Shown here: one piece after another, positions 1,951 to 64,000 of the stretch
Layout of the letters: every line of letters begins with the position of its first letter
How positions within the stretch are numbered: the first letter of the stretch is position 1
DNA from: an uncultured Gemmatimonadales bacterium
Lineage (GTDB): Bacteria > Gemmatimonadota > Gemmatimonadetes > Longimicrobiales > RSA9
Direction of reading: 5' to 3'
DNA: 64,000 nucleotides
Assembly: GCA_963783305.1 (NCBI GenBank)
Contig: CAWAMW010000012.1
Coordinates: 1-64,000 of the forward strand
Notes under the pieces: generated by a model
Seen by the model: only the letters and a program-made list of their open reading frames with translations
Told to the model about the DNA's origin: nothing
Databases searched by the model: none
Program-made: the position numbers and the translations under genes

Positions 1951-1974
1951 ACCGCGCATATACCATTAGCAGGT

Positions 1975-5175: not shown

Positions 5176-5232
5176 TGAGATGCAGCGGGGGTTTGCAAAC
5201 ATTATCCGATATCCAATGAAACGGAGCAGCGA

Positions 5233-13300: not shown

Positions 13301-13337
13301 GGCGCCCCGGCAGGGAGGCGGGGGGGAAGGGGAGTCT

Positions 13338-13943
13338 GTGGCCTCGCTGACGCGCCGGATCCTCCTGCTGAAGGCGCTCGTCTGGGTTGTCGGGCTGCTG
13401 CCGCTCATGCGGGTGGCGTGGTGGCTCAAGGACGGGCTCTACGGCCTCGGGGCGAACCCCATCGAGCGCGTTCTGCACCACGCCGGGTGGTGGACGCTCG
13501 TGCTGCTCCTGGGCACTCTCCTGATCACCCCGCTCCGCCGGATCACAGGGCTGAATGAGCTGGCCAGGCTCCGGCGTCCGCTCGGGCTTTTCGCATTCTT
13601 CTGGGGGACCGTCCACCTGGCGCTCTACGTGGGCCTGGACCAGCTATTCGCGTGGAGCTACATCGCCGAGGACGTGGTGGAGCGGCCGTTCATCACCGTG
13701 GGCTTCGCGGCGTGGCTCCTGCTCCTCCCGCTGGCAATCACCTCGACCCGAGGATGGATCCGCCGCCTCGGCCGGCGCTGGACACGGCTTCACCAGGTGG
13801 TCTACGCCGCCGCCGTTCTCGGGATCGTGCACTACTACTGGCGCGTGAAGGCGGATACGCGCGAGCCGCTGATCTTTGCGGCGGTATTCGTGGCGCTCAT
13901 GGCGCTGAGGATGCGCTGGACCGGACGAAAGCAGGTGGGCTGA
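13338..13943 (+). CDS. msrQ: MsrP heme-binding membrane subunit
   Basis: LGANPIE, LLITPLR, RRPLGLFAF, LAITS, WTRLHQVVY. Directly follows msrP. Confidence 0.93.
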   Translation: MASLTRRILLLKALVWVVGLLPLMRVAWWLKDGLYGLGANPIERVLHHAGWWTLVLLLGTLLITPLRRITGLNELARLRRPLGLFAFFWGTVHLALYVGLDQLFAWSYIAEDVVERPFITVGFAAWLLLLPLAITSTRGWIRRLGRRWTRLHQVVYAAAVLGIVHYYWRVKADTREPLIFAAVFVALMALRMRWTGRKQVG

Positions 13944-13961
13944 GGCAAGGCCGGCCTTCCC

Positions 13962-14000
13962 GAAAAAACGAAAGCCCCGCGCGCGTCGCGCCGGGGCTTC
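13962..14000 (-). terminator. Intrinsic terminator (U-tract on minus strand; probably bidirectional)
   Basis: AAGCCCCG/CGGGGCTT stem with an adjacent A6 run, between convergent genes. Confidence 0.65.
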
Positions 14001-14044
14001 TCGGTTCGGCAACTCTGCCGGAGCTACTCGTGCTGCGGTGCCGC

Positions 14045-14161
14045 TCAGATCCCCCAGATCACCGGGATCATGAGTGCCGCTACCGTGCCCACGAAGGCCG
14101 CCAGAGTGGCCGTGGCCTGGGCTGCGAACCGGAGCGTTGCCTTCGTCCTCAACGTTTCCAT
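14045..14161 (-). CDS. Small (38 aa) membrane peptide
   Basis: METLRTKATLRFAAQATATLAAFVGTVAALMIPVIWGI. AAGGTG upstream and a minus-strand terminator downstream. Confidence 0.45.
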   Translation of the reverse strand: METLRTKATLRFAAQATATLAAFVGTVAALMIPVIWGI

Positions 14162-14358
14162 GTGCCTGAACTTCACCTTTCGATCTATGGCAGGGCTCTT
14201 CTCGGAGCTTTCTTCCTGGTGGACCCTACGGGGCACCGGCCCCGAGTGTTTCACGGCTCCATAACCTTGGACACTGCGGCTTCGGGAAAGGTTGCCTGAA
14301 ACCCGGCCCACGCGTGCACCGTACGGTGGTTACGACTCCAACAGAAGAGGATGCGACC

Positions 14359-14631
14359 GTGGAAGAACTGATCCCCATATTCCTGTTCATCGTCATCGGC
14401 GGCGTGATGATTCTGCGGCCCGTGACCAAGAAGCTGGGGTTGCTCATCGAGGCGCTCGCCAAGGAGCGCATGGCGCGCACTGCCCCCGACCCGACGCTCG
14501 ACCAGGCGCAGCTGGTCCGGATCACCGGTGCGCTGGAGCAGCTGAATACGCGCATGGATCACATCGACGACCGGATCGGCTTCATGGAGCGGCTCCTCGA
14601 GGATCGGCCCCGCTCCCGCCTCACCGGGTGA
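14359..14631 (+). CDS. Small single-TM coiled-coil protein (PspB-like architecture)
   Basis: GAGG RBS and GTG start. TM segment ELIPIFLFIVIGGVMIL, C-terminal RMDHIDDRIGFMERLL. Confidence 0.7.
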   Translation: MEELIPIFLFIVIGGVMILRPVTKKLGLLIEALAKERMARTAPDPTLDQAQLVRITGALEQLNTRMDHIDDRIGFMERLLEDRPRSRLTG

Positions 14632-14972
14632 CGGTGCCCGACCCCCTCGCGGGGTGAGGGTTCGCGCTGCCGACCGACCCTGAAACCGCCTGACCCGGCT
14701 CGCCGCCGCGCCGGCCGGCCGCCGATTGTTCCGGCGCAGCCTACGCCCCTGACTCTCTACGATCCGGGGCGTTTTCCATGCTCGGCGGCCGGAGCAGGGG
14801 AACGCTCCGGAAACATCTCTCGGCGCCTCGTGTACGACAGCCTGGATACCCGATACCGGGTGGTCGTGAGAGTGTGGGATCAGCTCTTGCAATACGGCCA
14901 CCGATCCCCCACGGTCCGAGCATTTCCGCCGGGCCGAACAGGGAACGAGGCCGGTCGTAGGGGGCAGTTGGC

Positions 14973-15001
14973 TTGCTGGCGGGGAAGGGCCGCAATAGTA
15001 T
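14973..15001 (+). promoter_or_regulatory. Putative sigma70 promoter for the TPR gene
   Basis: TTGCTG-N17-TAGTAT. Confidence 0.4.
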
Positions 15002-15142
15002 GGGCTGTTTCCCGCACGACCCAGGCCTCACGGCGTTCACGCGTCGAACCCTGACCGCGGTGCGGGGGTACCATCTTTTCGAGGCGACAACGGAGCGGCC
15101 GGCTGTCGCGAGTGGCTTCTTCCAGAGCGGAGACCCTGGAAC

Positions 15143-16939
15143 ATGAATCAACTAGTTGAGAGACGGAGCATGTGGGTCGCGCTGACCTTCGCTTTCCTGC
15201 TGAGTGGCGTGGGTGTGAGCCCGGCGTCGGCGCAGGATGAGGGTGCGGGTGAGCGGATCACGATCATGGTGCCGGACCTGGCACCTCGGCAGGGCGCGGA
15301 TGACGACTTCGGCCAGGACGTGTCGAAGGAGCTGCGCGGTCTGATCGGTGACCTGCACACGCACCAGACGGTGTCGAGCGGCGACATGAAGGACGCGCGT
15401 CGTGAACTCAAGCTGAGCCATGAAGAGCTGTACGAGTGCATCAAGGCCCGTCAGCTGGCCATGCGCAAGAACTGGGGTCTCGTGCTCTGTGGCGAGTACC
15501 AGGCGCTGGGCGGCGGTCAGGTTCAGGTGGACGCGAAGTTCGTGGGCGCCTCCAACGGCAGCGAGTTCGCGGTTCCGCAGTTCAAGGTGAGCGAACGCGA
15601 CCCGAAGCAGGCGGCGCAGACGATCCTCCAGACGTTCGATCGCTGGCAGACCCAGCTCCGCCACACGGTGTTCTGTCAGCAGTACATGGAGAGCGATTCC
15701 TGGGACCGCGCTCTGGAGAACTGCAACACCGCGCTGGAGATCAACCCGAACTCCGCGGACGCGCTCTACATGAAAGCGTTCATCCAGCGGGAGACGGACC
15801 AGCCGGAGGCGGCGCTCGAGACGCTGGAGAAGCTTCTCGATATCGACCCGATCAACGAGAACGCGCTGAAGCTGGCGGGGATCGTGGCCACCGAGGCCAC
15901 CATGCCGGTGCGGGCGCGTGAGTACTTCGACCGCTACATGGAGCTGAACCCCGGCGACGTGGGAGTCCGACTGACGATCGCGACGGACATCGCCAACGCG
16001 GGGGACCCGGGCTCTGCGCTGTTGATCGCGCAGGAGGGTGCCGATCAGGTGGCGCAGGACACGACCGGCGAGGACATGACGCTCACCACCTACATCGGGC
16101 ACTTCGCCGCGCAGGCCGCCGGACAGGCGGAGGCGGCGGTGTTCAACGGCGGTGAAATGGTGGTCGATCCCCACGGCAACCCGGTGGACTCTTCGACCGT
16201 GCGTCGATACTACGAGACCGCCGCCGACGCCTACAAGCGGGTGTACGAAGTGCAGGCGGATTCGACGGAGCCGCAGATCCTGGAGCGACTGATCATCGCG
16301 GAGTTCAAGCTTGGCCGGTACGATGACGCCGTGTCGCTGGGTGAGCGGGCGGTCAAGCTGGCGCCGGAGAACGCGGCAATGTGGGATGCCTATTCGCGTG
16401 CACTCCAGGAGGCCGGGCGGGCGCGCGAGGCGCTGGCCGCTATGCAGCGGGCGCAGGAGATGGGCGGCGGCTCGGCGGGTCTGACGCAGCGCCGGGCGAC
16501 ACTCCAGCTGCAGATGGGGAACGCGCAGCAGGCCGTGGCGTCGCTGGTCGAGGGGGTCGGGTCGGGCGAGATCGACCCGTCGAACGCCTTCAACATCGTG
16601 TTCCGGACCGCCTACGTGGAGAACTTCCAGAAGGGGCGGCTGGAGCCGGCGTACGACCTGCTCGAGGCGGCGGGTCCGCTGGCACAGACGGAGCAGGATC
16701 GGCTGACGCGCAACTTCTGGCGCGGGTACATCCGGTTCGAGCAGGCCAAGTCCGCCCATGAGCCGATGACGGCTGCGTCGGCCCAGAGGGCGAAGCCGCT
16801 CTTCGAGCGCGCGCTCGAGCTCTTCCGCGCGGCCCAGGGGTACGAGAAGTACCACGCCTCGGCCAACGTGCCGCAGCTGATCGAGAACGCGCAGCGGTTC
16901 ATCCAGATCGAGGAAGCGCTGATCAAGCGCGGGCAGTAG
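15143..16939 (+). CDS. Secreted tetratricopeptide-repeat protein
   Basis: Signal peptide ending ASA-Q and multiple TPR-like repeats (ALEINPNSADALY, LLDIDPINENAL, AVKLAPENAAMW). Confidence 0.85.
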   Translation: MNQLVERRSMWVALTFAFLLSGVGVSPASAQDEGAGERITIMVPDLAPRQGADDDFGQDVSKELRGLIGDLHTHQTVSSGDMKDARRELKLSHEELYECIKARQLAMRKNWGLVLCGEYQALGGGQVQVDAKFVGASNGSEFAVPQFKVSERDPKQAAQTILQTFDRWQTQLRHTVFCQQYMESDSWDRALENCNTALEINPNSADALYMKAFIQRETDQPEAALETLEKLLDIDPINENALKLAGIVATEATMPVRAREYFDRYMELNPGDVGVRLTIATDIANAGDPGSALLIAQEGADQVAQDTTGEDMTLTTYIGHFAAQAAGQAEAAVFNGGEMVVDPHGNPVDSSTVRRYYETAADAYKRVYEVQADSTEPQILERLIIAEFKLGRYDDAVSLGERAVKLAPENAAMWDAYSRALQEAGRAREALAAMQRAQEMGGGSAGLTQRRATLQLQMGNAQQAVASLVEGVGSGEIDPSNAFNIVFRTAYVENFQKGRLEPAYDLLEAAGPLAQTEQDRLTRNFWRGYIRFEQAKSAHEPMTAASAQRAKPLFERALELFRAAQGYEKYHASANVPQLIENAQRFIQIEEALIKRGQ

Positions 16940-49998: not shown

Positions 49999-50032
49999 GT
50001 CGGTGCTCGCCCCCGCCCGCAGGACGGGCTGA

Positions 50033-52405
50033 GTGCGGGCGCCGCTCGTCACGACCGTGGCGGTTTTCGCAGCCGGCATCGCGCTGGGCCTGCAGCGTCC
50101 CATCCCCACCGGGGGTGGGACGCTTTGCATCATGGCCGCGATGGCCGGGCTGGCAGCGCTCTGGCTCCTGGGTGCTCGGGCGACTCTGGTCGTGCTGCTG
50201 CTGGCCGGCGGCCTGCTCGGCACCGCGACCCGCACCGCCGCCTCGCGCTCCTGCGCCAGCTGGATCCCCGACGACACGCCGCTGGAGGTTGTGGGGGTGG
50301 TGCGGCGGGTGGGGGCGCCGGGGGCCGCGGGAACCGATCGACTGCGCCTCCGGATCGACAGCGCGGGAGTGGCCGGCGGGCCGCGGGGCGCGCGGGGGGT
50401 GCCGCTGCTGGCGTGTGCGGCCGAGGTGCCGGCGCGGTGGGAGGGCGGAGTACAGGCGGGTTTGCGCGTGCGAGCGAGGGGGCGCTGGTGGAGCCCGCCC
50501 GGGTCCCGGTCGGGTTTGACCCGCCCGGGTACTCTCCTCCTGGACACGCTGGTCGTGTTGCCGGGAAGGGTGAAGCGGCGGCCCGGCGCAGTGCTCCGGG
50601 GGGCGGGGCTGGCGCGAATCGAAGCGGTGTTCCCGCGGCACGCCGCACTGGTGTCATCGCTGCTCCTGGCCCGGCGGGATGGGCTCGACAGGGAGGTGCG
50701 CGACCGGTATGCCCGTGCGGGCCTCAGCCATCTCCTGGCGATCTCGGGTCTTCACGTCGGCCTGGTCGCGGGGATCCTGCTGCTGGCGGCGCGGGCATTA
50801 CGCATCGGGAGAGTGAGGGCGCCCGTCGTCGCGGCGGCGGGGACGGTGGCGTACGTGGCGCTGCTGGGAGCGCCCGATTCCGCCGCGCGGGCCGCGCTCC
50901 AGATCGTACTGGTACTCGCCGCCCGCGCGCTCCAGAGGCCCACGCGGACGGAGGCGCTCATCGCGGCCGCGGCGTTGGCGCTCCTGGCCATCGATCCCGG
51001 CGCGCTCGCCCGGCCGGGCTTTCAGCTGTCGTTCGCCGGCGTTGCGGGGATCCTGGCGCTGCGCCGCCCACTCCTCGCCCGGCTCGCCCCTCTGGCGAAG
51101 GCAGCGATCGGGGGCAGGGTGAGCGCCCGGCCGTTGGGGCGATGGCTCGCGGACGGCGTTGCCACCAGCGTGGCTGCGACGGTGGCGACCGCGCCGATCG
51201 TGGCGTGGCACTTCGGAAGGGTCGCGCCGGTGGGGGTGGTGGCCAACCTGATCGCGATCCCCCTGCTGACCGCCGCCGTGCCGGCGCTGGCGCTGGCGCT
51301 GGCGGCGGGCACACTGTGGCTCCCCGCGGGTCGGTTCCTCGCCGGTGGGGGAGAGCTGCTCCTGGACATGCTGGACCGCACCGCGGCCGTGGCCGCGGGG
51401 CTACCGTATGCGACGGTGGCGGTGGTGCCCGGGTCCGCCTTCGTGCTGACGGCGGCCGTGGCGGCCGGGTATGCGGGATCGCGCCGTCTGGGCAGCGTGC
51501 GGCCCGCGGTGCGGGGGGTGGTGTGGGCATCGGCGGCGGCCGCGGTCCTGATGGTGGCGCCGCTGCGAGCCGCCGGGGACCGCGTGGAGATCCACCTCAT
51601 AGACGTCGGGCAGGGCGACGCTATCGGGATCCGCTCGCCCGGCGGCCGCTGGGTGGTGGTGGACGCCGGTCTCGCACGAAACGACTACGACGCGGGCGAG
51701 ACACGGGTGGTGCCGTATCTGCGCGCGAGAGGCGCGCATCGGATCGAGGGGCTGGTGGTGACGCACGCCGACGCCGACCACATCGGCGGCGCGGGGGCGG
51801 TCCTGCGATCACTGCGCCCTCGGTGGGCGGGCGGACCGGCGGTGGTGGTGGGAAAGCCGCAGTACCTGGCGCTGCTGCATCAGGCCCGGTCGGCGTCGGT
51901 GCCGTGGGTCGCGGTGCGACAAGGAATGGAGCTGACGGTCGATGGCATGACCCTGAGCTTCCTCTTCCCGGGCGGCGGCGACGTGGACGTGGAGGACGCC
52001 AACGACGCGAGCGTGGTGCTGCGGGTCGCATACGGCGAGTTCGCGGCGCTGCTCACTGGGGACGCCCCGGCCCGCGTCGAGGTGGCACTGGTGGAGCGGC
52101 TCGGGACGGGGCTGGACGCAGACGTGCTGAAGGTGGGGCATCACGGGAGCAGCACGTCCACCACGCCCGCTCTGCTCACGGCGACCGGGGCGGGCACCGC
52201 GCTCATATCCGCGGGGCGCGGGAATCGCTATGGTCATCCGCACGCCGACGTGCTGGCACGACTCCAGCAACGGGGGGTTCGAGTGTACCGAACGGATCGG
52301 CACGGCACCGTGGTGGTGCGCGCGGGGGCCGATGGCGTGCTGCGGGTAGAGACGGAGCGCGTGTCGGGACCGGGGTCGGGAAGCGGACCGGGGTCTGGAA
52401 GCTGA
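50033..52405 (+). CDS. comEC: DNA internalisation competence protein ComEC/Rec2
   Basis: GLSHLLAISGLHVG, GFQLSF, DVGQGDA, THADADH, LKVGHHGS, YRTDRHG. Confidence 0.93.
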   Translation: MRAPLVTTVAVFAAGIALGLQRPIPTGGGTLCIMAAMAGLAALWLLGARATLVVLLLAGGLLGTATRTAASRSCASWIPDDTPLEVVGVVRRVGAPGAAGTDRLRLRIDSAGVAGGPRGARGVPLLACAAEVPARWEGGVQAGLRVRARGRWWSPPGSRSGLTRPGTLLLDTLVVLPGRVKRRPGAVLRGAGLARIEAVFPRHAALVSSLLLARRDGLDREVRDRYARAGLSHLLAISGLHVGLVAGILLLAARALRIGRVRAPVVAAAGTVAYVALLGAPDSAARAALQIVLVLAARALQRPTRTEALIAAAALALLAIDPGALARPGFQLSFAGVAGILALRRPLLARLAPLAKAAIGGRVSARPLGRWLADGVATSVAATVATAPIVAWHFGRVAPVGVVANLIAIPLLTAAVPALALALAAGTLWLPAGRFLAGGGELLLDMLDRTAAVAAGLPYATVAVVPGSAFVLTAAVAAGYAGSRRLGSVRPAVRGVVWASAAAAVLMVAPLRAAGDRVEIHLIDVGQGDAIGIRSPGGRWVVVDAGLARNDYDAGETRVVPYLRARGAHRIEGLVVTHADADHIGGAGAVLRSLRPRWAGGPAVVVGKPQYLALLHQARSASVPWVAVRQGMELTVDGMTLSFLFPGGGDVDVEDANDASVVLRVAYGEFAALLTGDAPARVEVALVERLGTGLDADVLKVGHHGSSTSTTPALLTATGAGTALISAGRGNRYGHPHADVLARLQQRGVRVYRTDRHGTVVVRAGADGVLRVETERVSGPGSGSGPGSGS

Positions 52406-52418
52406 CGGGAGTCGTGGC

Positions 52419-52793
52419 ATGATCGGCATGATCAGTACGGCCGCTCGCCTGCTGGGCGGCGCGAAAGTGGAGACGCCCCTGTCTCTCCCGAAGGGGGTGG
52501 AGGTACGCCGGGCGCGCCTGGTTCCGCGTGTTGCGGGCTGGCTGGCGGGAATGGATGGCCCCGCCGCGGCCGTCACGCTGGGTCGGGTGATCCTGGTGGG
52601 ACCCACCGTGAGACCGAGCGAGCGGCTCCTGCGACACGAGCTGGCCCACGTCGCGCAGTGGGAGCGTCAGCCGCGCGCCTTTCCTTTCCGGTACATTGCT
52701 GCCCATATTCGGCAGGGATATCGGGATAACGCGTACGAGGCCGAGGCTCGGGCAGCCGAGAGCGGGCGAAGCGAATCGGGAGAAGGGGAATGA
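52419..52793 (+). CDS. DUF4157-like HExxH protein
   Basis: AVTLGRVI, LLRHELAHVAQW, YRDNAYEAEAR. Confidence 0.75.
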   Translation: MIGMISTAARLLGGAKVETPLSLPKGVEVRRARLVPRVAGWLAGMDGPAAAVTLGRVILVGPTVRPSERLLRHELAHVAQWERQPRAFPFRYIAAHIRQGYRDNAYEAEARAAESGRSESGEGE

Positions 52794-53818
52794 CTTCACG
52801 ATCCGTCATCACCATTGGCAGGCACATCATCGATCAGGAGCGACTGCATCCTGAGGCCACCGGCGCGCTGAGCGACATCCTGTACACCATGGCTCTCGCC
52901 GGGAAGCTCATCGCCCGGGAAGTGAGCAAGGCGGGCCTGGTGGACATCCTGGGGATGACCGGCGACACCAACGTGCACGGCGAGGCGGTCAAGAAGCTCG
53001 ACGAATTCGCCGATGATGTCATCTTTGCCGCGTTCGACCACACGGGGCTGCTCTGCTGCATGGCGTCGGAGGAGCACGAGGCGGTACGGGATATCCCGCA
53101 GAAGTTCCCCACCGGGAAGTACTCGCTGCTCTACGACCCGCTGGACGGATCGTCGAACATCGACGCGAACGTCTCCATCGGCACGATCTTCTCCGTCCAC
53201 AACAAGGTCTCGGAAGTGGCGCGGGGGTGCGAGGAGGACTGCCTGCAGAAGGGGGAGAACCAGGTGGCCGCCGGCTACATCCTCTACGGCTCCTCCACCA
53301 TGCTGGTGTATACCACCGGCAGCGGCGTGCACGGGTTCACGCTCGATCCGTCCATCGGGGAGTTCCTGCTGAGCCATCCCAACATCACCATCCCGAAGCC
53401 GGGCCGCCGGATCTACAGCGTGAACGAGAGCTACTACGCCGGCTGGTCCAGCGGGCAGAAGCGTCTCGTGGATCACCTGAAGGCGCTGGACGGCGGGAAC
53501 GGCGACGCGTTTTCCAGCCGCTACATCGGCTCCATGGTGGCGGACCTGCACCGGACCCTCCTGTACGGCGGACTCTTCATGTACCCGGCCGACTCCGAGA
53601 GCCCCAAGGGGAAGCTCCGGCTCCTTTACGAGGGATCGCCGATGGCCATGATCGTGGAGCAGGCGGGGGGCCGGGCGACGGACGGCGAGCGCCGGCTCAT
53701 GGAGATCGAGCCGACGAGCCTGCACCAGCGGACCCCGGTCTACATCGGGTCCACTGAGTACGTGGATCTGGCGGAGGAGTTCCTGTCGCAGGAAGAGGCG
53801 GTGGCGCCGGCGAGCTGA
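52790..53818 (+). CDS. fbp: Fructose-1,6-bisphosphatase class 1
   Basis: DPLDGSSNIDAN, RYIGSMVAD, GKLRLLYE. Confidence 0.97.
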   Translation: MTSRSVITIGRHIIDQERLHPEATGALSDILYTMALAGKLIAREVSKAGLVDILGMTGDTNVHGEAVKKLDEFADDVIFAAFDHTGLLCCMASEEHEAVRDIPQKFPTGKYSLLYDPLDGSSNIDANVSIGTIFSVHNKVSEVARGCEEDCLQKGENQVAAGYILYGSSTMLVYTTGSGVHGFTLDPSIGEFLLSHPNITIPKPGRRIYSVNESYYAGWSSGQKRLVDHLKALDGGNGDAFSSRYIGSMVADLHRTLLYGGLFMYPADSESPKGKLRLLYEGSPMAMIVEQAGGRATDGERRLMEIEPTSLHQRTPVYIGSTEYVDLAEEFLSQEEAVAPAS

Positions 53819-53842
53819 CGCCCCGCCGGCGCGGAGCCCGCC

Positions 53843-55039
53843 TCAGCCTGCGGCCTGGCAGTCCTCTTCCGGGTTCCGCTCCGTCGTCACCCTGATGGTG
53901 CCGTTCGCGTCCACCCGAAGCTCGATATCGCCGTGGACGTTCGTACAGTACGTGCGGGTGTTGCTCCGGCTCATGATCCTGGCCAGCGCGTTGTAGAGCG
54001 GGTGGGTCTCGCCGTTGGCGCTGATGAGCGCGACCTCGGGATCGGTGTGGTCCAGCCAGGAAGAGGCGCCGCTCGAGCCCACATCGAAGATGGCGTTGTT
54101 GGCCCCGTGGTGCCCCACCTTCAGCACGTCCACCTCCCCGGTCAGGGCGCTGAAGTCCTGGCGCCAGCGGCGGTTCGCCTCACGCTCCCCGTCCCCCGTC
54201 ATGAACATGGAGAAGGCGTCCCGTGTCACGGCGGCGCCGAGGGAGCCCTCGTTCAGCTCGTGGCCGTCGGCGTTCGGATCGTTCAGGTAGCTGTCCAGGG
54301 GCGGCAGCAGTGTGATCACGGTTCCATCATCGCCGCTCAGCGGCACGGTCAGGAGGTTGGCGGGCACGATCACGGTGTCCGCCCGTGCGTGCGCCTGATC
54401 GATGACACTTGTGTAGCCGCTGTAGTAGCGACTCTGCCCGTTGTAGATGAACCGCGCTACATCCAGCGACGCCAGCACGGCCGGCATCCCGTTGAAGTGA
54501 TCGCTGTGGGCGTGGGTCAGCACCAGCGCTTCCAGGCTTTCGACCCCCAGCGCCTGCAGTCGCTGGGCGACGTGGTCGGGATCGCTACCATCGACGCCGG
54601 CGGGCCCCGCATCCACGAGAACGTGGCGCTGGAACCCCTCCGCCGAGTCGGTCAGAAGGATGGCGTCGCCGCCGCCCCCCGCGCTGTTGTCGCCGAGGTC
54701 GAACATGCGCACGATGAGAACGCCGCCCTCGGGGACCTCGATGCGAAAGCCGACGGTGCGGGACGAGGCGGCCTCGCCGACGCGCGCTTCCACGATGAGG
54801 GTGTGATCGCCGAGCTCGGCCACCGTGGAGCCGGATAGGAACGGGGTGCCGTCGAGGGTGGCGCTGTAGCTGCCCCGATCGACCTCGACCGAGACCATCA
54901 CGGGTTCCGTGTACACGCCGCCCTCCTCGACCCCCGTAACGGAGATGGCCGGTGGGGTGGGCGGCTCGCTCGGGGAGCCCTCCGAGCAGCCGGCCAGCGC
55001 AACGCCGATGAGCAGCGCGACGGTTCGCCAGTCAGCCAT
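53843..55039 (-). CDS. Lipoprotein with Ig-like domain and ComEC-type metallo-beta-lactamase (nuclease-like) domain
   Basis: Lipobox LAGC; GGGDAILL, LTHAHSDH (HxHxDH), LKVGHHG, YCTNVHGDIEL. Confidence 0.85.
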   Translation of the reverse strand: MADWRTVALLIGVALAGCSEGSPSEPPTPPAISVTGVEEGGVYTEPVMVSVEVDRGSYSATLDGTPFLSGSTVAELGDHTLIVEARVGEAASSRTVGFRIEVPEGGVLIVRMFDLGDNSAGGGGDAILLTDSAEGFQRHVLVDAGPAGVDGSDPDHVAQRLQALGVESLEALVLTHAHSDHFNGMPAVLASLDVARFIYNGQSRYYSGYTSVIDQAHARADTVIVPANLLTVPLSGDDGTVITLLPPLDSYLNDPNADGHELNEGSLGAAVTRDAFSMFMTGDGEREANRRWRQDFSALTGEVDVLKVGHHGANNAIFDVGSSGASSWLDHTDPEVALISANGETHPLYNALARIMSRSNTRTYCTNVHGDIELRVDANGTIRVTTERNPEEDCQAAG

Positions 55040-55165
55040 GAATTTTGCCGGTCCCATTCAGCTACTCCTCTACGATGCGCAAACGCCTGGTTCCCCGCAC
55101 CTGCAGCGATACGGATCCCCCAGTGTAACGCCACTGGTGGAGGCGCGGCACCCATCCGCATGCGC

Positions 55166-55195
55166 TTGACTGTGGGCGAATGGAGCCAGTACAAT
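55166..55195 (+). promoter_or_regulatory. Putative sigma70 promoter of the lipoprotein-lipoprotein-TBDR operon
   Basis: TTGACT-N18-TACAAT. Confidence 0.55.
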
Positions 55196-55285
55196 TCGGC
55201 CCGGCAAGCCGGTGGGCTCGTGCGCCCGGCAGCCGGAAACACCAAGGTGTCAGGCTACCACAACCAGCTCGTTCTAGGAGTCCCG

Positions 55286-57172
55286 ATGTCCCGGCGAATC
55301 TTGCGTCTGCTGCTGATTGCTGCAGCACTTCCCGCCCTCTCCGCCTGTGATGGCGATACCACGGGTCCCGATGTCGGACCCTCCTCTCTCACCGTGCGCG
55401 CATACGTGGACGCGGACGGTAGCGGCACGTTCGACACGGGGGACACCCCCCTGGGCGGCGAGACGATCCTGCTGACGGGCCCCACCGGCAGCTCTGGGCC
55501 AATGGTCAGCCGCTCGGCCACGACAAGCGCGGAGGGTCTGGCCACGTTCGACGGTCTGGAGCCGGGCAGCTACTCGCTGTCGTATGATGGGGATGTGCCG
55601 GCCGGCGCGACGCTGGCAGGACCCACCACACCCGTGGTGGTGGCGCAGACGGTCCAGCAGGCGCTCGAGACGGAGTTCCGGTTCGTGAGCTTCCCCGGCG
55701 GGATCGCCGGCGTGCTGTACCGCGACGAGAACGCCAACGGTGTGTTCGACGAGGGGGACACGCCGGCGCCGGGGATCCCGGTGGCGGTGTACGCCGGCGC
55801 GTCGGCGGAGGGCGAGCCGGTGGCCGAGACGACCACGAGCCCCGGGGGCGCCTACGAGTTCGACGGCCTGCGGCCCGGCACCTACACGGTGGTATTCTCG
55901 CCGTTCCCGACCATGGAGCTGGAGGGCGGAAGCTCGATGACGGTGACGGTGGGAGCGGACGCGGTATCCACACCGTCGGTGGAGTTCACCGGCAACCTGC
56001 TGAGCCCGATCGCCGAGGCGCGGGCGCTGGCCGAAGCCGACGACAGCGTCGTGGTGGCGGTGGAGGGGACGGTGGCGTGGCAGCCCTCGTTCTCGGATGA
56101 CCTGTTCATTCAGGACGAGACCGCCGGGATCCAGGTGTATGCCGCGGCCGCGGACGTGCGGGATCTCGGCCTGGTGCCGGGCGATCGTGTGATCGTGGTG
56201 GGCGAGGTGGACCTGCGGTTCGGTGAGCCCCAGATCACGAACGTGTCGGCGCTGATGGTGCAGGGGAGCGGGGACGCCCCCACTCCGGTGCCGACCACGG
56301 CCGAGTCGATCAACGCGGGCGCGGTCGGTCACCAGCTGGTGTCGGTGGAGGGCGCAACGGTAACTGCGGTGGAGGTCCTGCAGTACGGCAACCAGTTCGT
56401 CACCCTGACCAATGCCGCCGGCAACGAGTTCGGCGTGTATGCTGACAGCCGGACTGGCGTGGAGGCCGCGCTCTGGACGGTGGGCGGCGTGTACGACGTC
56501 ACGGGCGTCGTCGGCTTCGACAGCCGATACGCGTACGCCAACCGGATCGAGGTCCGGGGCACCGAGGATGTGGTGCCGGGCGACCAACCGATCAGCATCG
56601 CCGAAGCGAAGGCCGCGGAGGCCGGTACAGAGGTGTCCATCGCGGGGACGGTGATCGCCCAGCCGTCGTTCGGGGACGAGCTGTTCATCCAGGACGCGAC
56701 CGGCGGGATCCAGATCTACGCCCGCGATGGAGACGTCCGCACGCTTGGCCTGGAGCCGGGCGATGTGGTGCGCGTGACGGGCACCACGGAAGACCGGTTC
56801 GGTGAGCGCCAGCTCACGAGCGTAACGTACCTGGCGGTGATCGGCAGCGGGGCCGCTCCGACGCCGACCGTCGTGACGCCGGCGGAAATCGCGTCCGGTG
56901 ACCAGGTCCACCAGCTCGTGACGGTGGAGGGCGCCACCGTGCTGGAGGTCGATACCAGCTGGAACACCTTCGGGAACCAGCTCGTGCGCCTGCGGGCCCC
57001 GAACGGCGAGGAGTTCGGCGTCTACGTGGACAGCCGGACCGGCGTGGAGGCGGACGCCTGGACGGTGGGCGCGGTTTACGACGTGACGGGCGTGATCAAC
57101 TACGACAGCCGCTACGATCCCTTCAGCTACCGAATCTGGGTGAGAGGACCTGGCGATGTGGTGGCGAACTGA
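55286..57172 (+). CDS. Lipoprotein: two SdrD-B-like domains plus duplicated OB-fold modules
   Basis: AGGAG RBS; lipobox LSAC; YVDADGSGTFD and YRDENANGVFD loops; two copies of IAEA...V.GTV..QPSF.D.LFIQD.T.GIQ.Y...L.PGD.V.V.G. Confidence 0.8.
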   Translation: MSRRILRLLLIAAALPALSACDGDTTGPDVGPSSLTVRAYVDADGSGTFDTGDTPLGGETILLTGPTGSSGPMVSRSATTSAEGLATFDGLEPGSYSLSYDGDVPAGATLAGPTTPVVVAQTVQQALETEFRFVSFPGGIAGVLYRDENANGVFDEGDTPAPGIPVAVYAGASAEGEPVAETTTSPGGAYEFDGLRPGTYTVVFSPFPTMELEGGSSMTVTVGADAVSTPSVEFTGNLLSPIAEARALAEADDSVVVAVEGTVAWQPSFSDDLFIQDETAGIQVYAAAADVRDLGLVPGDRVIVVGEVDLRFGEPQITNVSALMVQGSGDAPTPVPTTAESINAGAVGHQLVSVEGATVTAVEVLQYGNQFVTLTNAAGNEFGVYADSRTGVEAALWTVGGVYDVTGVVGFDSRYAYANRIEVRGTEDVVPGDQPISIAEAKAAEAGTEVSIAGTVIAQPSFGDELFIQDATGGIQIYARDGDVRTLGLEPGDVVRVTGTTEDRFGERQLTSVTYLAVIGSGAAPTPTVVTPAEIASGDQVHQLVTVEGATVLEVDTSWNTFGNQLVRLRAPNGEEFGVYVDSRTGVEADAWTVGAVYDVTGVINYDSRYDPFSYRIWVRGPGDVVAN

Positions 57173-57194
57173 GGCACGAACCCAAGGCGTGGTG

Positions 57195-58238
57195 ATGAAG
57201 CATATGAACGATCAGATGAGTGGTCGCGTCCGGCGTTGGGCGGTGGCCCTGGCCGCCGTGAGCGTGCTGGCCGCGTGCGATGACGACGTGGCGCCCCCGA
57301 CGGCCATCGAGGGGACGGGCTCGGTGGAGGGCCTGCTCTTCTACGACGCGAACCGGGATGGGCTGTTCGACCCCTCGGCGGGGGACGAGGCGCTGCCGGG
57401 CGTTCAGCTGGTCCTGCGGCAGCGCGGGACCGAGGACGTGCTCGCGGGGGGCACGGCGGTCACGGGAGACGACGGCCGGTTCTCCATGACCGGCGTGCCG
57501 CTGGGGACGCACGAGCTTTTCGTGAACGAGAGCACGGCTCCCGAGTTCGCAACCTTCTGTAGGAACCCCATCCCGGTTTCCGTCTATCGCAACGAGACGC
57601 AGTTCGAGGATGTGGACGCGCGTCAGAGCTGCCTGGTCACGATCGCCGTGGCCGAGGAGCAGCCGCTGGGCGAATACGTGACGGTCTCGGGGATCGTGGT
57701 CTCCGGGTCAGGCATGATCCGGCCGGGGTACATCCACATCGAGGACGAGTCGGGCGGCGTGCGGCTGTTCGACTACGCGCTGGACGACCTGGGCCTGGAG
57801 GTAGGGGACCGGCTCGAGGCCTCGGGGACGCTCGCGGCGTACGGCGGCGACTTCCAGATCACGGGGATCACGGTGAACGCGGTGGAAGAGGACGCGGCGG
57901 ACCCGCAGCCGACGCTGGTGACGACGGCCGAGATCTCGGAGGCGGGGCTGGATGGCAAGGACCCACTGCTGGGTCGGCTGGTGAAGGTGGAGGGAGCCGA
58001 GCTGGTGAGTGAGTTCGGCGCGGACGGCATGCACTATCGCAACGCCCTGATCGACACGGGTGAGGGCGCGACGATCGTCCGTCTGGAGGAAGCGGTGGGC
58101 GCCGGCACTCCCGAGATCGAGGCGCTGATGACGGTGGGCAGCTGCTACGACATAACGGGCGTGACGGGGACGTTCAGCCAGGAAGGGCAGATCTTCCCGC
58201 GCACGCCGGCTGACATCGTGGAGGTCGCATGTCCGTAA
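57195..58238 (+). CDS. Lipoprotein: SdrD-B-like domain plus OB-fold module
   Basis: Lipobox LAAC; FYDANRDGLFD; TIAVAE..VTVSGIV..IHIEDESGGVRLF..LEVGDRLEASG; QIFPRTPADI. Start codon uncertain. Confidence 0.78.
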   Translation: MKHMNDQMSGRVRRWAVALAAVSVLAACDDDVAPPTAIEGTGSVEGLLFYDANRDGLFDPSAGDEALPGVQLVLRQRGTEDVLAGGTAVTGDDGRFSMTGVPLGTHELFVNESTAPEFATFCRNPIPVSVYRNETQFEDVDARQSCLVTIAVAEEQPLGEYVTVSGIVVSGSGMIRPGYIHIEDESGGVRLFDYALDDLGLEVGDRLEASGTLAAYGGDFQITGITVNAVEEDAADPQPTLVTTAEISEAGLDGKDPLLGRLVKVEGAELVSEFGADGMHYRNALIDTGEGATIVRLEEAVGAGTPEIEALMTVGSCYDITGVTGTFSQEGQIFPRTPADIVEVACP

Positions 58239-58273
58239 AGGGTGATGGAGCTCGTACATCTCTGGAAGGTTCA

Positions 58274-61200
58274 ATGATGCACTTCAGATATATGGCCAGG
58301 TCGCTGGCACGAATGGCCGTTGCGGCGGCCGCGCTGCTGCTGGCGCCCATGGCGCTGCAGGCGCAGAACGCCACTACCAACGGTCAGATCCGGGGCACGG
58401 TGGCCGGCCCGGCGGGGCAGCCGGTGCAGGGCGTGGCGTTGACCGCGGTCAACGAGGGCACCGGCCTCACCCGCAGCACGCTGACGGGCGAGAACGGTCG
58501 ATACATGCTCCACCTGCTGCCGCCGGGGAGCTACACGGTCCGGGCGGAGATGATCGGATACCGCACGGACGAGGTGCCGGGCGTACAGGTGGCGATCGGC
58601 CAGACCTCCACGGTGAACGTGAACCTGGAGGAGGAGGCCGTGGGTCTCGAGGGGATCCGGGTCCTGGTGGACCGTGAGCGGATCGATGTCTCGGATGCCT
58701 CCGTGGTGGACCTGGTCTCGCGGCAGCAGATCGAGGAGCTGCCGGCGCTGGGTCGCGACTTCACCGACTTCATCAACCTGAGCGGACTCGTGGCGCCGGA
58801 CCCGGGCGAGACGACCGGGGGACAGTTCTCGATCGGGGGTCAGCGCGCGTCGCAGACGAACCTGCAGATCGACGGCGTGGACGCGAACAACGCCTTCTTC
58901 GGTGAGAACCGGGGCGGATCGCGGATCCCGTTCGTCTTTTCGCTGGAGTCCATCGAGGAGTTCCAGGTCATCACGAACGGGTACGACGTGGAGTACGGCA
59001 ATTACTCCGGCGGGATCGTGAACGTGGTGACTCGGGGCGGTACGAACGAGCTGCACGGGAACGTGTACGGCAACTACCGCAGCGATGCGCTCACCGGCCG
59101 GGGGTTCCTGGCGGGCGAGCAGGTGGAGGAGTACAGCGTCGGCCAGTTCGCCGGCCGGCTCTCCGGCCCGATCATGGAGGACAAGGCGTTCTTCTCGATC
59201 TCGTTCGACGGTCAGCGCCGGCGCGAGCCGCAGCTGCCGCTCACGGTGGCGCAGTACACGACGGGCGAGGACGCGGAGCCGGGCATCGCGGCGGAGGTGG
59301 AGGACTTCTTCCAGATCCTGGAGAACCAGTACGGGATCCAGAACCCGGCCTCGGGCTTCGAGCCGTTCCAGACGACGAACGACGTGCTGTCGATCTTCGG
59401 CCGCATCGACTGGAACATCACGCCGGACCACCGGCTCTCGGTCCGGCACAACTACGCGAACTACAAGAACGACCGCGAGTTCTCGCCCGGCTACGACTAC
59501 TACTACGGCTCGTCGCGATCGGAGAACCTCTCGGACCTGTCGAACTCGTTCGTTACGGAGCTCCAGTCGATCCTGGGCACGAACACGTTCAACGTGTTTC
59601 GCTTCCAGTACGCCACGGAGGAGCGTCCGCGCCAGGGGAGTGAGCTCCGGCCGGCGCTGATCACGCGGCTGTCGAACGGCGACCTCATCGGGTACGGCGG
59701 GACGTTTGTGGCGTTCCACAACAACCTCAACGAGCGGAAGCTGCAGTTCATCGACAACTTTACGCACATTGTCGGGGACCACAGCCTGAAAGTGGGCTTC
59801 AACGGCCTGCTGACCACGGCGGAAAACTGGTTCCTGCCGCCGTTCACCGCTCCGTGCGGGCGTGGCAGCCAGGGCGCGGGCGTATTCTGCTTCGACGACC
59901 TGGAGGCGCTGGCCGCGGGCACACCGTCCTCGTACGTCTTCAACGTCAATCAGGGCGAGGACCTGGTGCCGTACAGCGAGGTGCAGGTCAGCGAGATCGG
60001 CGTGTACGTGCAGGACGAGTGGCAGGTGTCGCCGAAGCTCACGGCCACGCTCGGTCTGCGGCACGACCGCCAGGACTTCCGCGATGACCCGGAGCGGGTC
60101 ATCGACGTGGAGCGCGCCTTCGGCTACCCGACGGGTACGGCGCCGCAGGACAACAACAACATCTCGCCCCGGCTCAACCTCGCCTACGACGTGTATGGCG
60201 ACGGTCGGTCGGTGGTGCGCGCGGGCGCCGGCTACTTCTTCGGCCGCGTGCCGTACGTGCTGGCGGGCAACGTGGAGGGGAGTCAGCGGCCGGTCTACAC
60301 GCTGAACTGCTCGGGCTCCGTGAGCGAGGGCGACCCGGACGCGCCGCCCACGCCGCTGAACTACGGCGACTGGTCGAATCAGGGCTACGACAATCCGACC
60401 GCGTGCCGGAGCGGGTCGTCGCTGAGTGGTGTTCCCACGTACGCGGTGTGGAACCCGGACTTCGAGTATCCCGAGACGTTCAAGGCGAACGCGGGGTTCG
60501 AGACGATGCTGGGCGACCGGACGCGCCTGTCGACCGACCTGATCTTCTCGCAGAGCACCAAGCTGTACACGGTGCGGAACCTCAACCTGCGGGGTGTGCA
60601 GTTCCAGCTGGAGAGCGAGGGCGGCCGGCGCGTGTTCTCGCCGCGGGCGACGTTCAGCCCTTCGGGGGGCAATACGGAATCGGCGCGACTGTACACGGAT
60701 CTGGGCGATGTGTACGTCAACTACAACGACGGGCGCGCCCGGTCGATGGTGGGCACGCTCGAGCTGAGCCACAAGCTGGCGGAGAACACGACGTTGCGCG
60801 GGTCGTACACGCTCACCCGCTCGCAGGACAACTCGTCCTACTCGTGCTGCACGGCCAACGCGGGCTACACCAGCCCGAACGTGGGGCTTTACGGCCCCAA
60901 CGAGATCGGCGGGATCGGCGATGATGACAAGTCGTGGGGGACCAGCGACTTCGAGCGCCGTCATACGTTCATTCTCTCCGGCCAGACGGAGCTGCCGTAC
61001 GGCTTCAAGGTGAGCGGGATCTGGCGGGTCCAGAGCGGCCGTCCGTTCACGCCGGAAGTGGGCGGTGACCTGAACGGTGACGGCGTGTCGTACAACGACC
61101 GCCCGTTCATCTTCTCGCCGGATGCGCTGCCGCTGCCGGCGGGGTCGGAGGACCAGCGGGAGCTGTATCGGAATCTGCTGGCAGACAACGATTGCATCGG

Positions 61201-61582
61201 CGACTACGAGGGCCAGATCGTGCCTCGCAACACCTGTCGGACGCCGTGGTCGAACATGCTGGACATGCGGCTGACGAAGGAGTTCCCGACGCTCGAGGGT
61301 CAGCGGGCTGAGCTGCAGGTGGATCTGTTCAACGTGCTGAACGGTGTGAGCCAGATCTTCTGCAGCGACGACGAGTTCGCGGAAGACCCGACCGGCGGCG
61401 TGTGCGGCCTGGGTCGTTTCACGAGCGTGAGCGGCTCATCGAGGAACATCTTCAGGCCGGCCGGATTCGCTGATGACGCGGTCACCTACACGGTGTCCGA
61501 CAGCTTCGGCCGTGAGGGTGTCGTCGGCTCCAACCTCCTGCTCCAGTTCCAGGCGCAGATCGGGTTCAAGTACTACTTCTAA
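58274..61582 (+). CDS. TonB-dependent receptor with N-terminal carboxypeptidase-regulatory-like domain (Oar-like)
   Basis: Signal peptide, GQIRGTV..LPPGSYTVRAE, IEELPALGRDF, SIEEFQVITN..EYG..SGGIVNVVTRGGTN, YVQDEWQV, C-terminal QIGFKYYF. Confidence 0.92.
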   Translation: MMHFRYMARSLARMAVAAAALLLAPMALQAQNATTNGQIRGTVAGPAGQPVQGVALTAVNEGTGLTRSTLTGENGRYMLHLLPPGSYTVRAEMIGYRTDEVPGVQVAIGQTSTVNVNLEEEAVGLEGIRVLVDRERIDVSDASVVDLVSRQQIEELPALGRDFTDFINLSGLVAPDPGETTGGQFSIGGQRASQTNLQIDGVDANNAFFGENRGGSRIPFVFSLESIEEFQVITNGYDVEYGNYSGGIVNVVTRGGTNELHGNVYGNYRSDALTGRGFLAGEQVEEYSVGQFAGRLSGPIMEDKAFFSISFDGQRRREPQLPLTVAQYTTGEDAEPGIAAEVEDFFQILENQYGIQNPASGFEPFQTTNDVLSIFGRIDWNITPDHRLSVRHNYANYKNDREFSPGYDYYYGSSRSENLSDLSNSFVTELQSILGTNTFNVFRFQYATEERPRQGSELRPALITRLSNGDLIGYGGTFVAFHNNLNERKLQFIDNFTHIVGDHSLKVGFNGLLTTAENWFLPPFTAPCGRGSQGAGVFCFDDLEALAAGTPSSYVFNVNQGEDLVPYSEVQVSEIGVYVQDEWQVSPKLTATLGLRHDRQDFRDDPERVIDVERAFGYPTGTAPQDNNNISPRLNLAYDVYGDGRSVVRAGAGYFFGRVPYVLAGNVEGSQRPVYTLNCSGSVSEGDPDAPPTPLNYGDWSNQGYDNPTACRSGSSLSGVPTYAVWNPDFEYPETFKANAGFETMLGDRTRLSTDLIFSQSTKLYTVRNLNLRGVQFQLESEGGRRVFSPRATFSPSGGNTESARLYTDLGDVYVNYNDGRARSMVGTLELSHKLAENTTLRGSYTLTRSQDNSSYSCCTANAGYTSPNVGLYGPNEIGGIGDDDKSWGTSDFERRHTFILSGQTELPYGFKVSGIWRVQSGRPFTPEVGGDLNGDGVSYNDRPFIFSPDALPLPAGSEDQRELYRNLLADNDCIGDYEGQIVPRNTCRTPWSNMLDMRLTKEFPTLEGQRAELQVDLFNVLNGVSQIFCSDDEFAEDPTGGVCGLGRFTSVSGSSRNIFRPAGFADDAVTYTVSDSFGREGVVGSNLLLQFQAQIGFKYYF

Positions 61583-61604
61583 TCGCAGCAGGGTCTCAGG
61601 GCTG

Positions 61605-61641
61605 AAAAGGCCCCCACCGCCAATGGCGGTGGGGGCCTTTT
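61605..61641 (+). terminator. Intrinsic terminator (bidirectional)
   Basis: AAAAGGCCCCCACCGCCA-a-TGGCGGTGGGGGCCTTTT. Confidence 0.85.
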
Positions 61642-61750
61642 CACGTCCGCGCCGGAGGGCGTCCCTATCCCCCACGCGAGGCCCTCTCTTCATCACCGCA
61701 GGGCGGAGGTTTCCGGCTCGCCCACCGACACCCTCGCTGCGGTGGATGAA

Positions 61751-61782
61751 GAAGCCCCCGTCGCTCCGGCGACGGGGGCTTC
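61751..61782 (-). terminator. Hairpin, probable terminator for ppdK-add
   Basis: GAAGCCCCCGTCGC-tccg-GCGACGGGGGCTTC. Confidence 0.65.
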
Positions 61783-61825
61783 CTAGGTGGCGGGTTCGAA
61801 CCGCCGCTGGGGCGCCGCGCGGGCG

Positions 61826-62905
61826 CTACGCCAGGCGAGTGGCTCCCGCGTCGGCATCCTCCGCCCGGTACCTGGCGGACAGGGCGCGGATGCGCTCGGA
61901 CATCTCCGCCACCAGCGCCTGCTTCTCCTTGTGCGGGAGGAACGCGCTCTCGAATCCGTAGAGGGAGATGCGGGTGAGCTCCTCCCAGGTGAAGTCCAGG
62001 TGCTGATGAGCGCGCCAGTACTCCTCCGTCACGGTGGTGGCGCTCATGAGGCGGTTGTCGGTGTTGAGGGTCACCACGAGGCCCTCGTCGTAGTAGAGTC
62101 GGACCGGGTGCTCATCCAGGCTCTCCACGGCCCGGGTCTGGACGTTCGATGTCATGCAGATCTCGATGGGGATCCGGAAATTGTTCACGTAGTCCATGAG
62201 GTCCGGGTCCTCGAAGAGCCGGGTCCCGTGGCCGATCCGGTTGGCGTTGCAGTAGTGCAGCGCCTGGTGGATCGATTCCGGGCCGTACGCCTCACCCGCG
62301 TGAATCGTGGCCGCGATGTTGGCGTTCCCCACGCGGTAGAACGCCTCCCTGTGCATCTTGGCGGGGTTATTGTACTCCGCGCCCGCCAGGTCGAAGGCGA
62401 GGACCCCATCGTTCTTGAACTGGACGGTGAGGTCGGCCAGGTCCATGGAGGTGTGTGGGCTCATGTTCCTGATGCCGCAGATGATGATCCCGGTCCGGAT
62501 GTCGTACTGCTCCTCGGCGCGGCGCAGGCCGCGGAGCGGAGCGGCGACGGCCTCTTCGAGCGTGAGGCCACCCTGGACGTTGAGGACGGGGGAGAACCGG
62601 ACCTCCATGTAGCGCACGTTCTCCGCGGCCGCGTCTTCGGCCATCTCGAACGCGATCCTCTCCAGCGACTCGGCGTCCTGCATGACGCTGAGGGTGATGT
62701 CGAAGCGCGAGAGGTAGTCTACGAGGTCTCGTGCTTCCTGGACATGCATGTAGTCCGCGAGCGCCTCGGGATCCCGGGTGGGGAGGGTCGTGCCACGCTC
62801 GTCGGCGAGCTCGATCAGTGTTACCGGCCGGACCGACCCGTCGAGGTGGACGTGGAGGTCTGTCTTCGGCAACCCGTGCAGACGTTCCCGTGTTACGCGT
62901 ACCAT
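61826..62905 (-). CDS. add: Adenosine deaminase
   Basis: LPKTDLHVHLDG, DLAGAE, HAGE, RIGHG, LNTDN. Confidence 0.93.
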   Translation of the reverse strand: MVRVTRERLHGLPKTDLHVHLDGSVRPVTLIELADERGTTLPTRDPEALADYMHVQEARDLVDYLSRFDITLSVMQDAESLERIAFEMAEDAAAENVRYMEVRFSPVLNVQGGLTLEEAVAAPLRGLRRAEEQYDIRTGIIICGIRNMSPHTSMDLADLTVQFKNDGVLAFDLAGAEYNNPAKMHREAFYRVGNANIAATIHAGEAYGPESIHQALHYCNANRIGHGTRLFEDPDLMDYVNNFRIPIEICMTSNVQTRAVESLDEHPVRLYYDEGLVVTLNTDNRLMSATTVTEEYWRAHQHLDFTWEELTRISLYGFESAFLPHKEKQALVAEMSERIRALSARYRAEDADAGATRLA

Positions 62906-62921
62906 ACCGTCTCCGCTTCTT

Positions 62922-64000
62922 CTATCCGACCGTCTCGAGGCGCTGGGCCTCCCGCGATTTCGTGTCCCCATCGTACAGGGCGGCCTGCGCTGCCGCCAGC
63001 CGCGCCACGGGGACGCGGAAGGGCGAGCAGGAGACGTAATCGAGTCCCGTGTCGTGGAAGAAGCGGATCGAGTTGGGCTCGCCGCCGTGCTCACCGCAGA
63101 TTCCCACCTTGAGGTCGGGTCTCGTGGCGCGCCCCTTTCGGGTGCCGAGGGAGACCAGCTGCCCCACGCCCTCCTGGTCGAGCACCTGGAACGGATCGCT
63201 GGGCAGGATCTCCTGATCGATATAGAGCGGCATGAAGGAGCCGGCGTCGTCGCGTGAGATGCCGAACGTGGTCTGCGTGAGGTCGTTGGTGCCGAAGGAG
63301 AAAAACTCGGCGGTCTCCGCGATCCGATCGGCCGTCAGGGCGGCCCGGGGCAGCTCGATCATGGTACCCACGAGGTACTCGACCTGGCGATCTGCCTCCT
63401 GGAAGACCTCCTTCGCCACCTCCCGGATGATCTTGTCCTGGGCGCGCAGCTCCTCGACGGTGCTGACCAGCGGGACCATGATCTCCGGCAGCACGTCCAC
63501 GCCGTCCGCCGCGACCCGTACCGCGGCCTCGAAGATGGCCCGGGCCTGCATGCGCGTAACCTCGGGAACCGAGATGCCCAGGCGAACGCCCCGGTTGCCG
63601 AGCATGGGGTTCGTCTCGCGGTGGCGCGCCACCTCCGTCCGGATCTCATCGACGTCGCGCCCCGACGCGTCCGCCAGCTCCTGAATCTCCTCCTCCTCGT
63701 GCGGGAGGAACTCGTGCAGCGGCGGGTCGAGGAGCCGGATGGTTACCGGGAAGCCGTCCATGGCGCGAAAGATCCCCTCGAAGTCCTCCCGCTGCATGGG
63801 AAGGATCTTCCGGAGCGCGTGCTCCCGGTCCTCGGGCTTCCGGGCCAGAATCATCTCGCGGACCGCCCGGATCCTCTCGTCTCCGAAGAACATGTGCTCG
63901 GTACGGCAGAGGCCGATCCCCTCGGCGCCGAACTCCCGGGCCTTCGCCGCGTCGCCCGGCGTGTCGGCGTTGGTGCGGACGCCCATGGTCCGGAAGCTGT
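62922..64000 (-). CDS. ppdK: Pyruvate, phosphate dikinase (3' part; truncated by the window edge)
   Basis: [52 protein letters not shown]. Confidence 0.96.

Follow-up and report, generated by a model that had tools for sequence, protein, structure and literature searches.

A lipoprotein and TonB-dependent transporter cassette of Gemmatimonadota that probably scavenges extracellular nucleic acids

What is taken up by a TonB-dependent transporter (TBDT) whose gene follows two genes for lipoproteins with OB folds and lies close to that of a lipoprotein with a metallo-beta-lactamase (MBL) domain? This question is raised by the window analysed here, a stretch of 64 kb (contig C12 of genome G000, G000:C12), in which a first-pass annotation had seen a locus for the use of outside nucleic acid. 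All open reading frames that it named were confirmed at their positions, and the closest named relatives of the TBDT, in the following also termed the receptor, belong to the Gemmatimonadota. Here, the conserved unit comprises four genes, in which the MBL lipoprotein is encoded divergently from the run LP1, LP2 and TBDT:

53843..55057, minus strand: MBL lipoprotein with a lipobox, a beta-sandwich stalk (mature residues 15-83) and a metallo-beta-lactamase domain of the ComEC/Pce clade, a putative nuclease or phosphodiesterase
ATG at 55039, minus strand: second possible start of the MBL lipoprotein
55286..57172, plus strand: LP1, a lipoprotein of 628 aa with two stalk domains of SdrD-B/CnaB type and two tandem-OB pairs resembling DUF5689
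57195..58238, plus strand: LP2, a lipoprotein with a single stalk of SdrD-B/CnaB type and a single tandem-OB pair
58274/58277..61582, plus strand: TBDT of 1101 aa with PF25183 (OMP_b-brl_4), an N-terminal CarboxypepD_reg extension and a plug

We consider it probable that the cell feeds on extracellular DNA or RNA scavenged by this cassette. The reading is built on gene order, domain content, predicted folds, the single clade formed by the receptors and the exchange of the MBL gene for an unrelated Endonuclease I, all observed directly, and the functional steps are deduced from these. The first-pass view of OB lipoproteins, a TBDT and a nuclease-type enzyme acting on outside nucleic acid is thereby supported by the fold match and by the co-occurrence with nucleases. 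The architecture, which was taken there for an unnamed one, is of the same kind as the ddbABCDEF DNA-utilization locus of the gut bacterium Bacteroides thetaiotaomicron (Sharan et al., PNAS 2025, PMC12478041; bioRxiv 10.1101/2025.03.18.642099), which consists of a TBDT, a DUF5689 lipoprotein and nucleases (PMC12478041).

Distribution of the cassette and exchange of its enzyme

Loci were collected by a receptor search in 151 genomes of the order, a scan of genome contigs and an LP2 search in 401 genomes of the phylum, and neighbourhood maps were drawn with a genome-trained gene caller; outside the Gemmatimonadota the distribution was sampled only. In total, 24 cassette loci were found via the receptor or LP2, and the cassette is conserved across the class Gemmatimonadetes. 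LP2 directly precedes the receptor in 24/24 loci (in G009 as a fragment at the contig end), and LP1 precedes LP2 where the contig allows. Within the phylum, 18 of the 401 genomes carry the cassette, 17 with an LP2 match at E<1e-45 plus G009, where it is split over two contigs.

The enzyme of the cassette appears in two unrelated forms. Full-length MBL orthologues (E<1e-100) are present in seven of the 401 genomes and are divergent from LP1 in all seven. Endonuclease I was detected in nine of the 401, eight of which are cassette genomes without MBL; in these eight it is the sole copy found and lies downstream of the cassette receptor, adjacent to it in seven and 4.7 kb away in G360. No genome contains both enzymes (0/401), and within family f5 Endonuclease I occurs in 8/9 cassette genomes vs 0/84 others. 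In two more of the 18 cassette genomes, G390 and G421, the cut falls within LP1. The last one, G476, carries neither enzyme with its intact cassette. Counted by locus, 19 of the 24 have an MBL (11, one of them cut by a contig end) or Endonuclease I (8), four are cut on the MBL side and one has neither; in L003 the MBL start is cut. Endonuclease_NS follows the MBL gene in G035 and G131, and a 5'-nucleotidase-domain gene adjoins the cassette in G441. A metagenome scan with an MBL profile, covering 5 of 64 parts, yielded five close relatives, of which all three with upstream DNA show a divergent LP1-LP2, and two are cut.

The cassette receptors of the 24 loci share 45-59% identity. In a FastTree phylogeny of 79 full-length, de-duplicated receptors (the broken L144 receptor was left out), the 23 cassette receptors form one clade with a support of 1.0, which divides into two subclades, one with the MBL and one with Endonuclease I. 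The expectation that homologues of the receptor co-occur with nuclease genes holds for the cassette receptor clade.

A distant sister cassette served as control. It is defined by weak matches of LP2 and contains a PF25183 receptor of 22-26% identity with one SdrD-B plus OB lipoprotein downstream (G000:C13 at ~12300-16800, L154; further L152, L156-L166 and L168-L176). Within ~3 kb of these 22 loci (102 proteins in the main survey, plus others) no neighbour belongs to a nuclease family (0/22), which indicates that the nuclease link is specific to the cassette clade. Among their neighbours are VanZ (14/22) and a polysaccharide deacetylase (DUF3473, 13/22), as well as PEP-CTERM and asparagine synthase genes. 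Sister cassettes thus are parts of exopolysaccharide (EPS)/exosortase clusters, their receptors form a separate clade, and their role is possibly an EPS-related transport.

Predicted folds of the four proteins

The MBL lipoprotein displays the lipobox LAG-C and the motifs HAHSDH and GHHG, and it matches Lactamase_B with 34.6 bits; ComEC-type matches in Pfam and NCBIfam are weak only. It lacks the Competence channel domain and is therefore a stand-alone lipoprotein. The motifs HxHxDH, N246 (the Asn of motif III), D266 (the bridging Asp), GHH (H293-H294) and HP (H329-P330) are invariant in 120 sequences. A model from these 120 rows (pLDDT 92, the predicted score in the local distance difference test) has its best structural match in the ComEC nuclease domain 9ic4 (Z 30.0, root mean square deviation (rmsd) 2.7 over 258 residues, 27% identity), followed by Pce (Z 25.8) and RNase J (Z 17.8). 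As in ComEC, the metal ligands, the equivalent of H725 and the HP motif are kept. This suggests that the protein is nuclease-like by fold. The first-pass annotation had described an intact ComEC-type active site; HxHxDH and GHHG are indeed present, but motif II matches that of Pce/CbpE, whereas ComEC has HxDxDH (PMC8579336), and the window's own comEC reads HADADH. Pce and CbpE, teichoic-acid phosphorylcholine esterases (2bib, 1wra), have HxHxDH in common with the MBL lipoprotein. Unlike them, the latter is without choline-binding repeats and is a Gram-negative lipoprotein linked to a TBDT. In the family of the MBL lipoprotein, the acidic post-cysteine motif of LP2 is mostly missing (8/119 vs 42/94 sequences), so that a periplasmic site of action is possible.

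Shorter stand-alone ComEC-type MBL genes with 36-42% identity to the window MBL, often followed by DUF3006, were additionally observed (L199-L208). They lie near add in 9/10 loci, several also near a (double) 5'-nucleotidase, a nucleoside phosphorylase, NupC or phoB/phoR-like genes.

For LP1, Pfam reports two SdrD_B and two DUF5689 stretches, the latter with 71.9 and 46.3 bits and thus both above the cut-off (28.6); between its two OB pairs the identity is 59%. No catalytic domain was found in LP1 by Pfam and NCBIfam. OB modules related to those of LP1 and LP2 occur in the extracellular nucleases ExeM/NucH and YhcR; LP1 and LP2 differ from these by having no nuclease domain, and the ExeM/NucH model (NF033681) matches only the OB part of LP1 (residues 448-549) with 44.6 bits against a cut-off of 300. 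Mature lengths of ~600, 790 and 970 aa suggest that LP1 orthologues carry 2, 3 or 4 OB pairs.

LP2 scores 20.3 bits for DUF5689, under the cut-off of 28.6. Its model (pLDDT 95.9, alignment of 94 rows) shows a CnaB/SdrD-B domain (Z 13.5, 13.3) together with two OB folds. The first OB fold is matched by the p204 HIN-dsDNA complex (Z 11.9, rmsd 2.4 over 87 residues) and RPA (Z 11.7), and Foldseek lists POT1, RPA, CST and p202-dsDNA (4jbm) among its matches. The repeats, for which nucleic-acid-binding OB folds had been expected, are thus modelled as tandem OB folds that appear nearest to DNA-binding ones. In each cassette inspected, LP2 lies immediately upstream of the receptor; it likely is the DdbD/SusD-like partner of the latter.

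The receptor contains CarboxypepD_reg, Plug and PF25183 (244.9 bits), a family to which the label 'Oar-like' is applied. No close solved structure was found for this family. When the barrel of the receptor (residues 268-1101), without the plug, was co-modelled with the N-terminal domain of LP2, without the OB pair, the predicted complex scored 0.01. No SusD, SusC or carbohydrate-active enzyme family matched the four genes in Pfam and NCBIfam; membership in a SusCD-type polysaccharide utilization locus was rejected, as these genes contain neither a SusC/SusD pair nor glycan enzymes. As judged from proxies, the receptor as a DdbC was also rejected, since BLASTP gave E>=0.5 to two DUF5689-adjacent Bacteroidota receptors. 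Profile-profile comparison aligned the cassette receptor to DdbC-like receptors over residues 48-270 only, i.e., the N-extension and plug (E 4e-11), weaker than to SusC-like ones (E 9e-18). DdbC was represented by 13 proxies chosen by DUF5689 adjacency, seven of which had a DUF5689-like gene nearby in the retrieved DNA, none being DdbC WP_008762511.1 itself; these proxies do not match PF25183.

Further PF25183 receptors were noticed outside of the phylum. In an Ignavibacteria metagenome-assembled genome (L004:9917-15808) such a receptor is followed by a DUF4397 protein and a fusion of DUF5689 with an EEP nuclease, a third nuclease family adjoining the PF25183 receptor family. In Prevotella and Hallella (L005/L006:9977-14808) it precedes a BACON plus OB-like lipoprotein; these receptors as ddb-like loci were ruled out, their DUF5689 being located elsewhere. 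Leads to DUF5689 clusters also exist in Myxococcota.

The chromosomal slot and flanking elements

The surroundings of the four genes in the window contain the following elements:

50033..52405, plus strand: comEC, in a miaB-comEC-(eCIS_core)-fbp run left of the cassette; 1437 bp separate its end from the MBL stop
55166..55195, plus strand: sigma70-like promoter candidate TTGACT-N18-TACAAT, 10/12 matches, ~90 bp 5' of LP1
61599..61647, no strand assigned: hairpin of -47.5 kcal/mol with an A run before and a T run after
~61690-61783: further hairpins between receptor and add
61826..62905, minus strand: add, adenosine deaminase, TIGR01430 above cut-off, downstream of ppdK

Both add and comEC had been counted as parts of the locus. 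This does not hold, since both are adjacent in only 3/24 loci (G000, G006, G009); comEC additionally adjoins the cassette in metagenome L223. In nine other genomes (G126, G062, G087, G033, G135, G015, G003, G078, G002) the same add/fbp slot is occupied by a PF25183 receptor without lipoproteins that faces add, usually accompanied by a double 5'-nucleotidase, NupC being present in some. For the sister receptors with 39-40% identity, the add/5'-nucleotidase context rests on G078 and G002, which are unpublished genomes. The rare adjacency and the lipoprotein-less receptors suggest that the cassette sits in a nucleotide-salvage slot, of which add and comEC are flanks and not members of the cassette. 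G000 encodes a NupC-type transporter on contig C15, and comEC as well as dprA are present.

A promoter and a terminator had been proposed for the operon. The hairpin at 61599-61647 folds strongly and likely is a two-way terminator between receptor and add, although it is absent from the output of a terminator scan. The promoter-like site was found once vs 1.0 expected in shuffled sequence and is therefore supported by its position alone. No Rfam match was obtained across 50000-64000, public runs include no listed RNA holder, and word counting upstream of LP1 in 20 loci revealed no common operator or Pho-box-like motif.

Some further observations concern the genome itself. Between comEC and fbp a small eCIS_core-domain gene (52419-52793) is retained in several relatives. 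Positions 1-6000 of the window are low in GC (55-60% vs 69%) and the genome-trained caller calls no genes there; by eye, two tandem Ku-like genes follow at 6131-7868. On contig C6 of G000 (L221:6370-9381(-)), a lipoprotein of 1003 aa that combines lamin-tail, Endonuclease_NS and FIMAH domains is a candidate surface nuclease.

Proposed function, competing explanations and related systems

As food scavenger, the cassette would act as follows. LP1 and LP2 would be lipid-anchored at the surface, where the OB pairs on their CnaB-type stalks hold nucleic-acid fragments, which the lamin-tail/Endonuclease_NS lipoprotein of contig C6 could provide. With LP2 as partner of the receptor, oligonucleotides would pass through the TBDT into the periplasm. 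Their cleavage to nucleotides would be the task of the MBL lipoprotein, either at the surface or on the periplasmic side, and the nucleosides would enter via the NupC-type transporter to be salvaged by Add.

Several observations weigh against this function. YgiW, MCM and tRNA-synthetase domains are tied at Z 11.1 as matches of the LP2 OB folds, the YgiW tie being the adverse one, and LP1 exceeds the BOF and stress-OB cut-offs. The same module occurs in EPS clusters, so that specificity for nucleic acids does not hold for OB lipoproteins paired with PF25183 receptors as such. The Pce-like motif II, the Pce match and the lack of the ComEC serine and pin loop, described below, also count against it. 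G476 retains an intact cassette with neither enzyme, and the eight Endonuclease I loci, from one family and three genera, are kin and possibly reflect a single event. A UshA-type 5'-nucleotidase was not detected in G000, which is 96% complete. Net charge is strongly negative in the OB pairs (-8 to -13 per 100 aa vs a genome lipoprotein median of -4.8; the DdbD-like protein of L177 has +1.3), and the MBL domain has a charge of -7.8 vs 0.0 for the ComEC domain of G000. Such acidity runs counter to tight binding of long duplex DNA; at best, short or cation-bridged substrates fit.

The acidic surfaces would also suit a different substrate class, namely non-nucleic phosphodiesters such as teichoic-acid or phospholipid head groups, cyclic nucleotides or NAD-like molecules, with the MBL protein as a Pce-like esterase. 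This is likewise favoured by the Pce-like HxHxDH and the Pce match, and by the active site: A296 aligns to the ComEC substrate serine S728, and the aromatic pin loop of ComEC is missing (ANGxxHP in place of NNFGHP; PMC12455585). In addition, phoB/phoR-like, pstS and phoD genes are found close to shorter MBL relatives and to sister receptors. However, Endonuclease I replaces the MBL in eight relatives, the tandem OB folds resemble DNA binders and the ComEC domain scores 4 Z units above Pce, so that we regard this explanation as unlikely, if the best of the alternatives.

Slightly less probable is that the cassette represents the outer-membrane step of natural transformation and passes DNA to ComEC, for which G000 carries comEC and dprA. 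In Riemerella anatipestifer, an outer-membrane protein bearing PF13620 and an adjacent DUF5689 protein (RA0C_RS04915/RS04920) are required for transformation (PMC8459023), and this TBDT and DUF5689 lipoprotein pair is homologous to DdbC/DdbD. The cassette receptor, in contrast, lies outside of the DdbC/Riemerella-like family and its barrel is without detectable homology. Furthermore, the occurrence is patchy (18/401), the cassette is tightly linked to degradative nucleases and the comEC adjacency is accounted for by the slot.

That receptor and lipoproteins serve the envelope by binding or exporting polysaccharide or protein, the nuclease-type gene remodelling matrix DNA and not feeding the cell, is the least probable explanation: the EPS-linked sister cassettes (one in G000 itself), the YgiW/BOF-like OB matches and the Myxococcus xanthus TBDT Oar, which secretes a protease (PMC11658791), would fit, but the EPS-linked receptors are the separate clade without nuclease neighbours, and the sister receptors of the cassette clade adjoin add and 5'-nucleotidase.

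The cassette can be compared closely with the ddb loci. Both have a TBDT adjoining DUF5689 tandem-OB lipoprotein(s), in the cassette LP1 (even its weaker stretch, 46.3 bits, above 28.6), a second non-catalytic lipoprotein and a structural match to p202 (4JBM), as reported for DdbD. The ddb loci contain exported nucleases whose content varies between subtypes; in the cassette, the MBL is nuclease-like by fold and relatives have Endonuclease I or Endonuclease_NS. Unlike ddb, the cassette has a PF25183 receptor, its lipoproteins lie upstream of the receptor and stand on SdrD-B stalks, it has a single enzyme, either the ComEC-clade MBL or an Endonuclease I, in place of the Endonuclease_NS of the ddb-like locus L177, and its phylum is the Gemmatimonadota. 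As in ComEC (PMC8579336, PMC12455585), its MBL domain would work alongside OB fold and channel. It differs from ComEC by the stand-alone lipoprotein with its beta-sandwich stalk, the altered active-site residues and OB folds located on separate proteins. No publication on this Gemmatimonadota cassette was found in a literature search that mostly excluded subscription papers.

In soil and sediment, where Gemmatimonadota are common but poorly understood, a large amount of organic phosphorus and nitrogen is stored in extracellular DNA. We tentatively propose, as a possibility that we would not yet favour, that the cassette is a second, independently assembled class of nucleic-acid importer, built from a PF25183 receptor that is not DdbC, OB lipoproteins and a swappable nuclease, whose MBL form mirrors ComEC at the outer membrane and whose stand-alone ComEC-type MBL lipoproteins are a new family of scavenging nucleases. 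If this is true, the MBL form would rebuild from separate proteins the division of labour in ComEC, in which the OB fold holds DNA, the MBL cuts and the channel passes the product. As a scavenging system, the cassette would in addition assign a role to the stand-alone MBL lipoproteins of ComEC-like type, whose present annotation is 'competence protein', and a substrate to the large uncharacterised TBDT family PF25183, and DNA-utilization loci would have arisen more than once.

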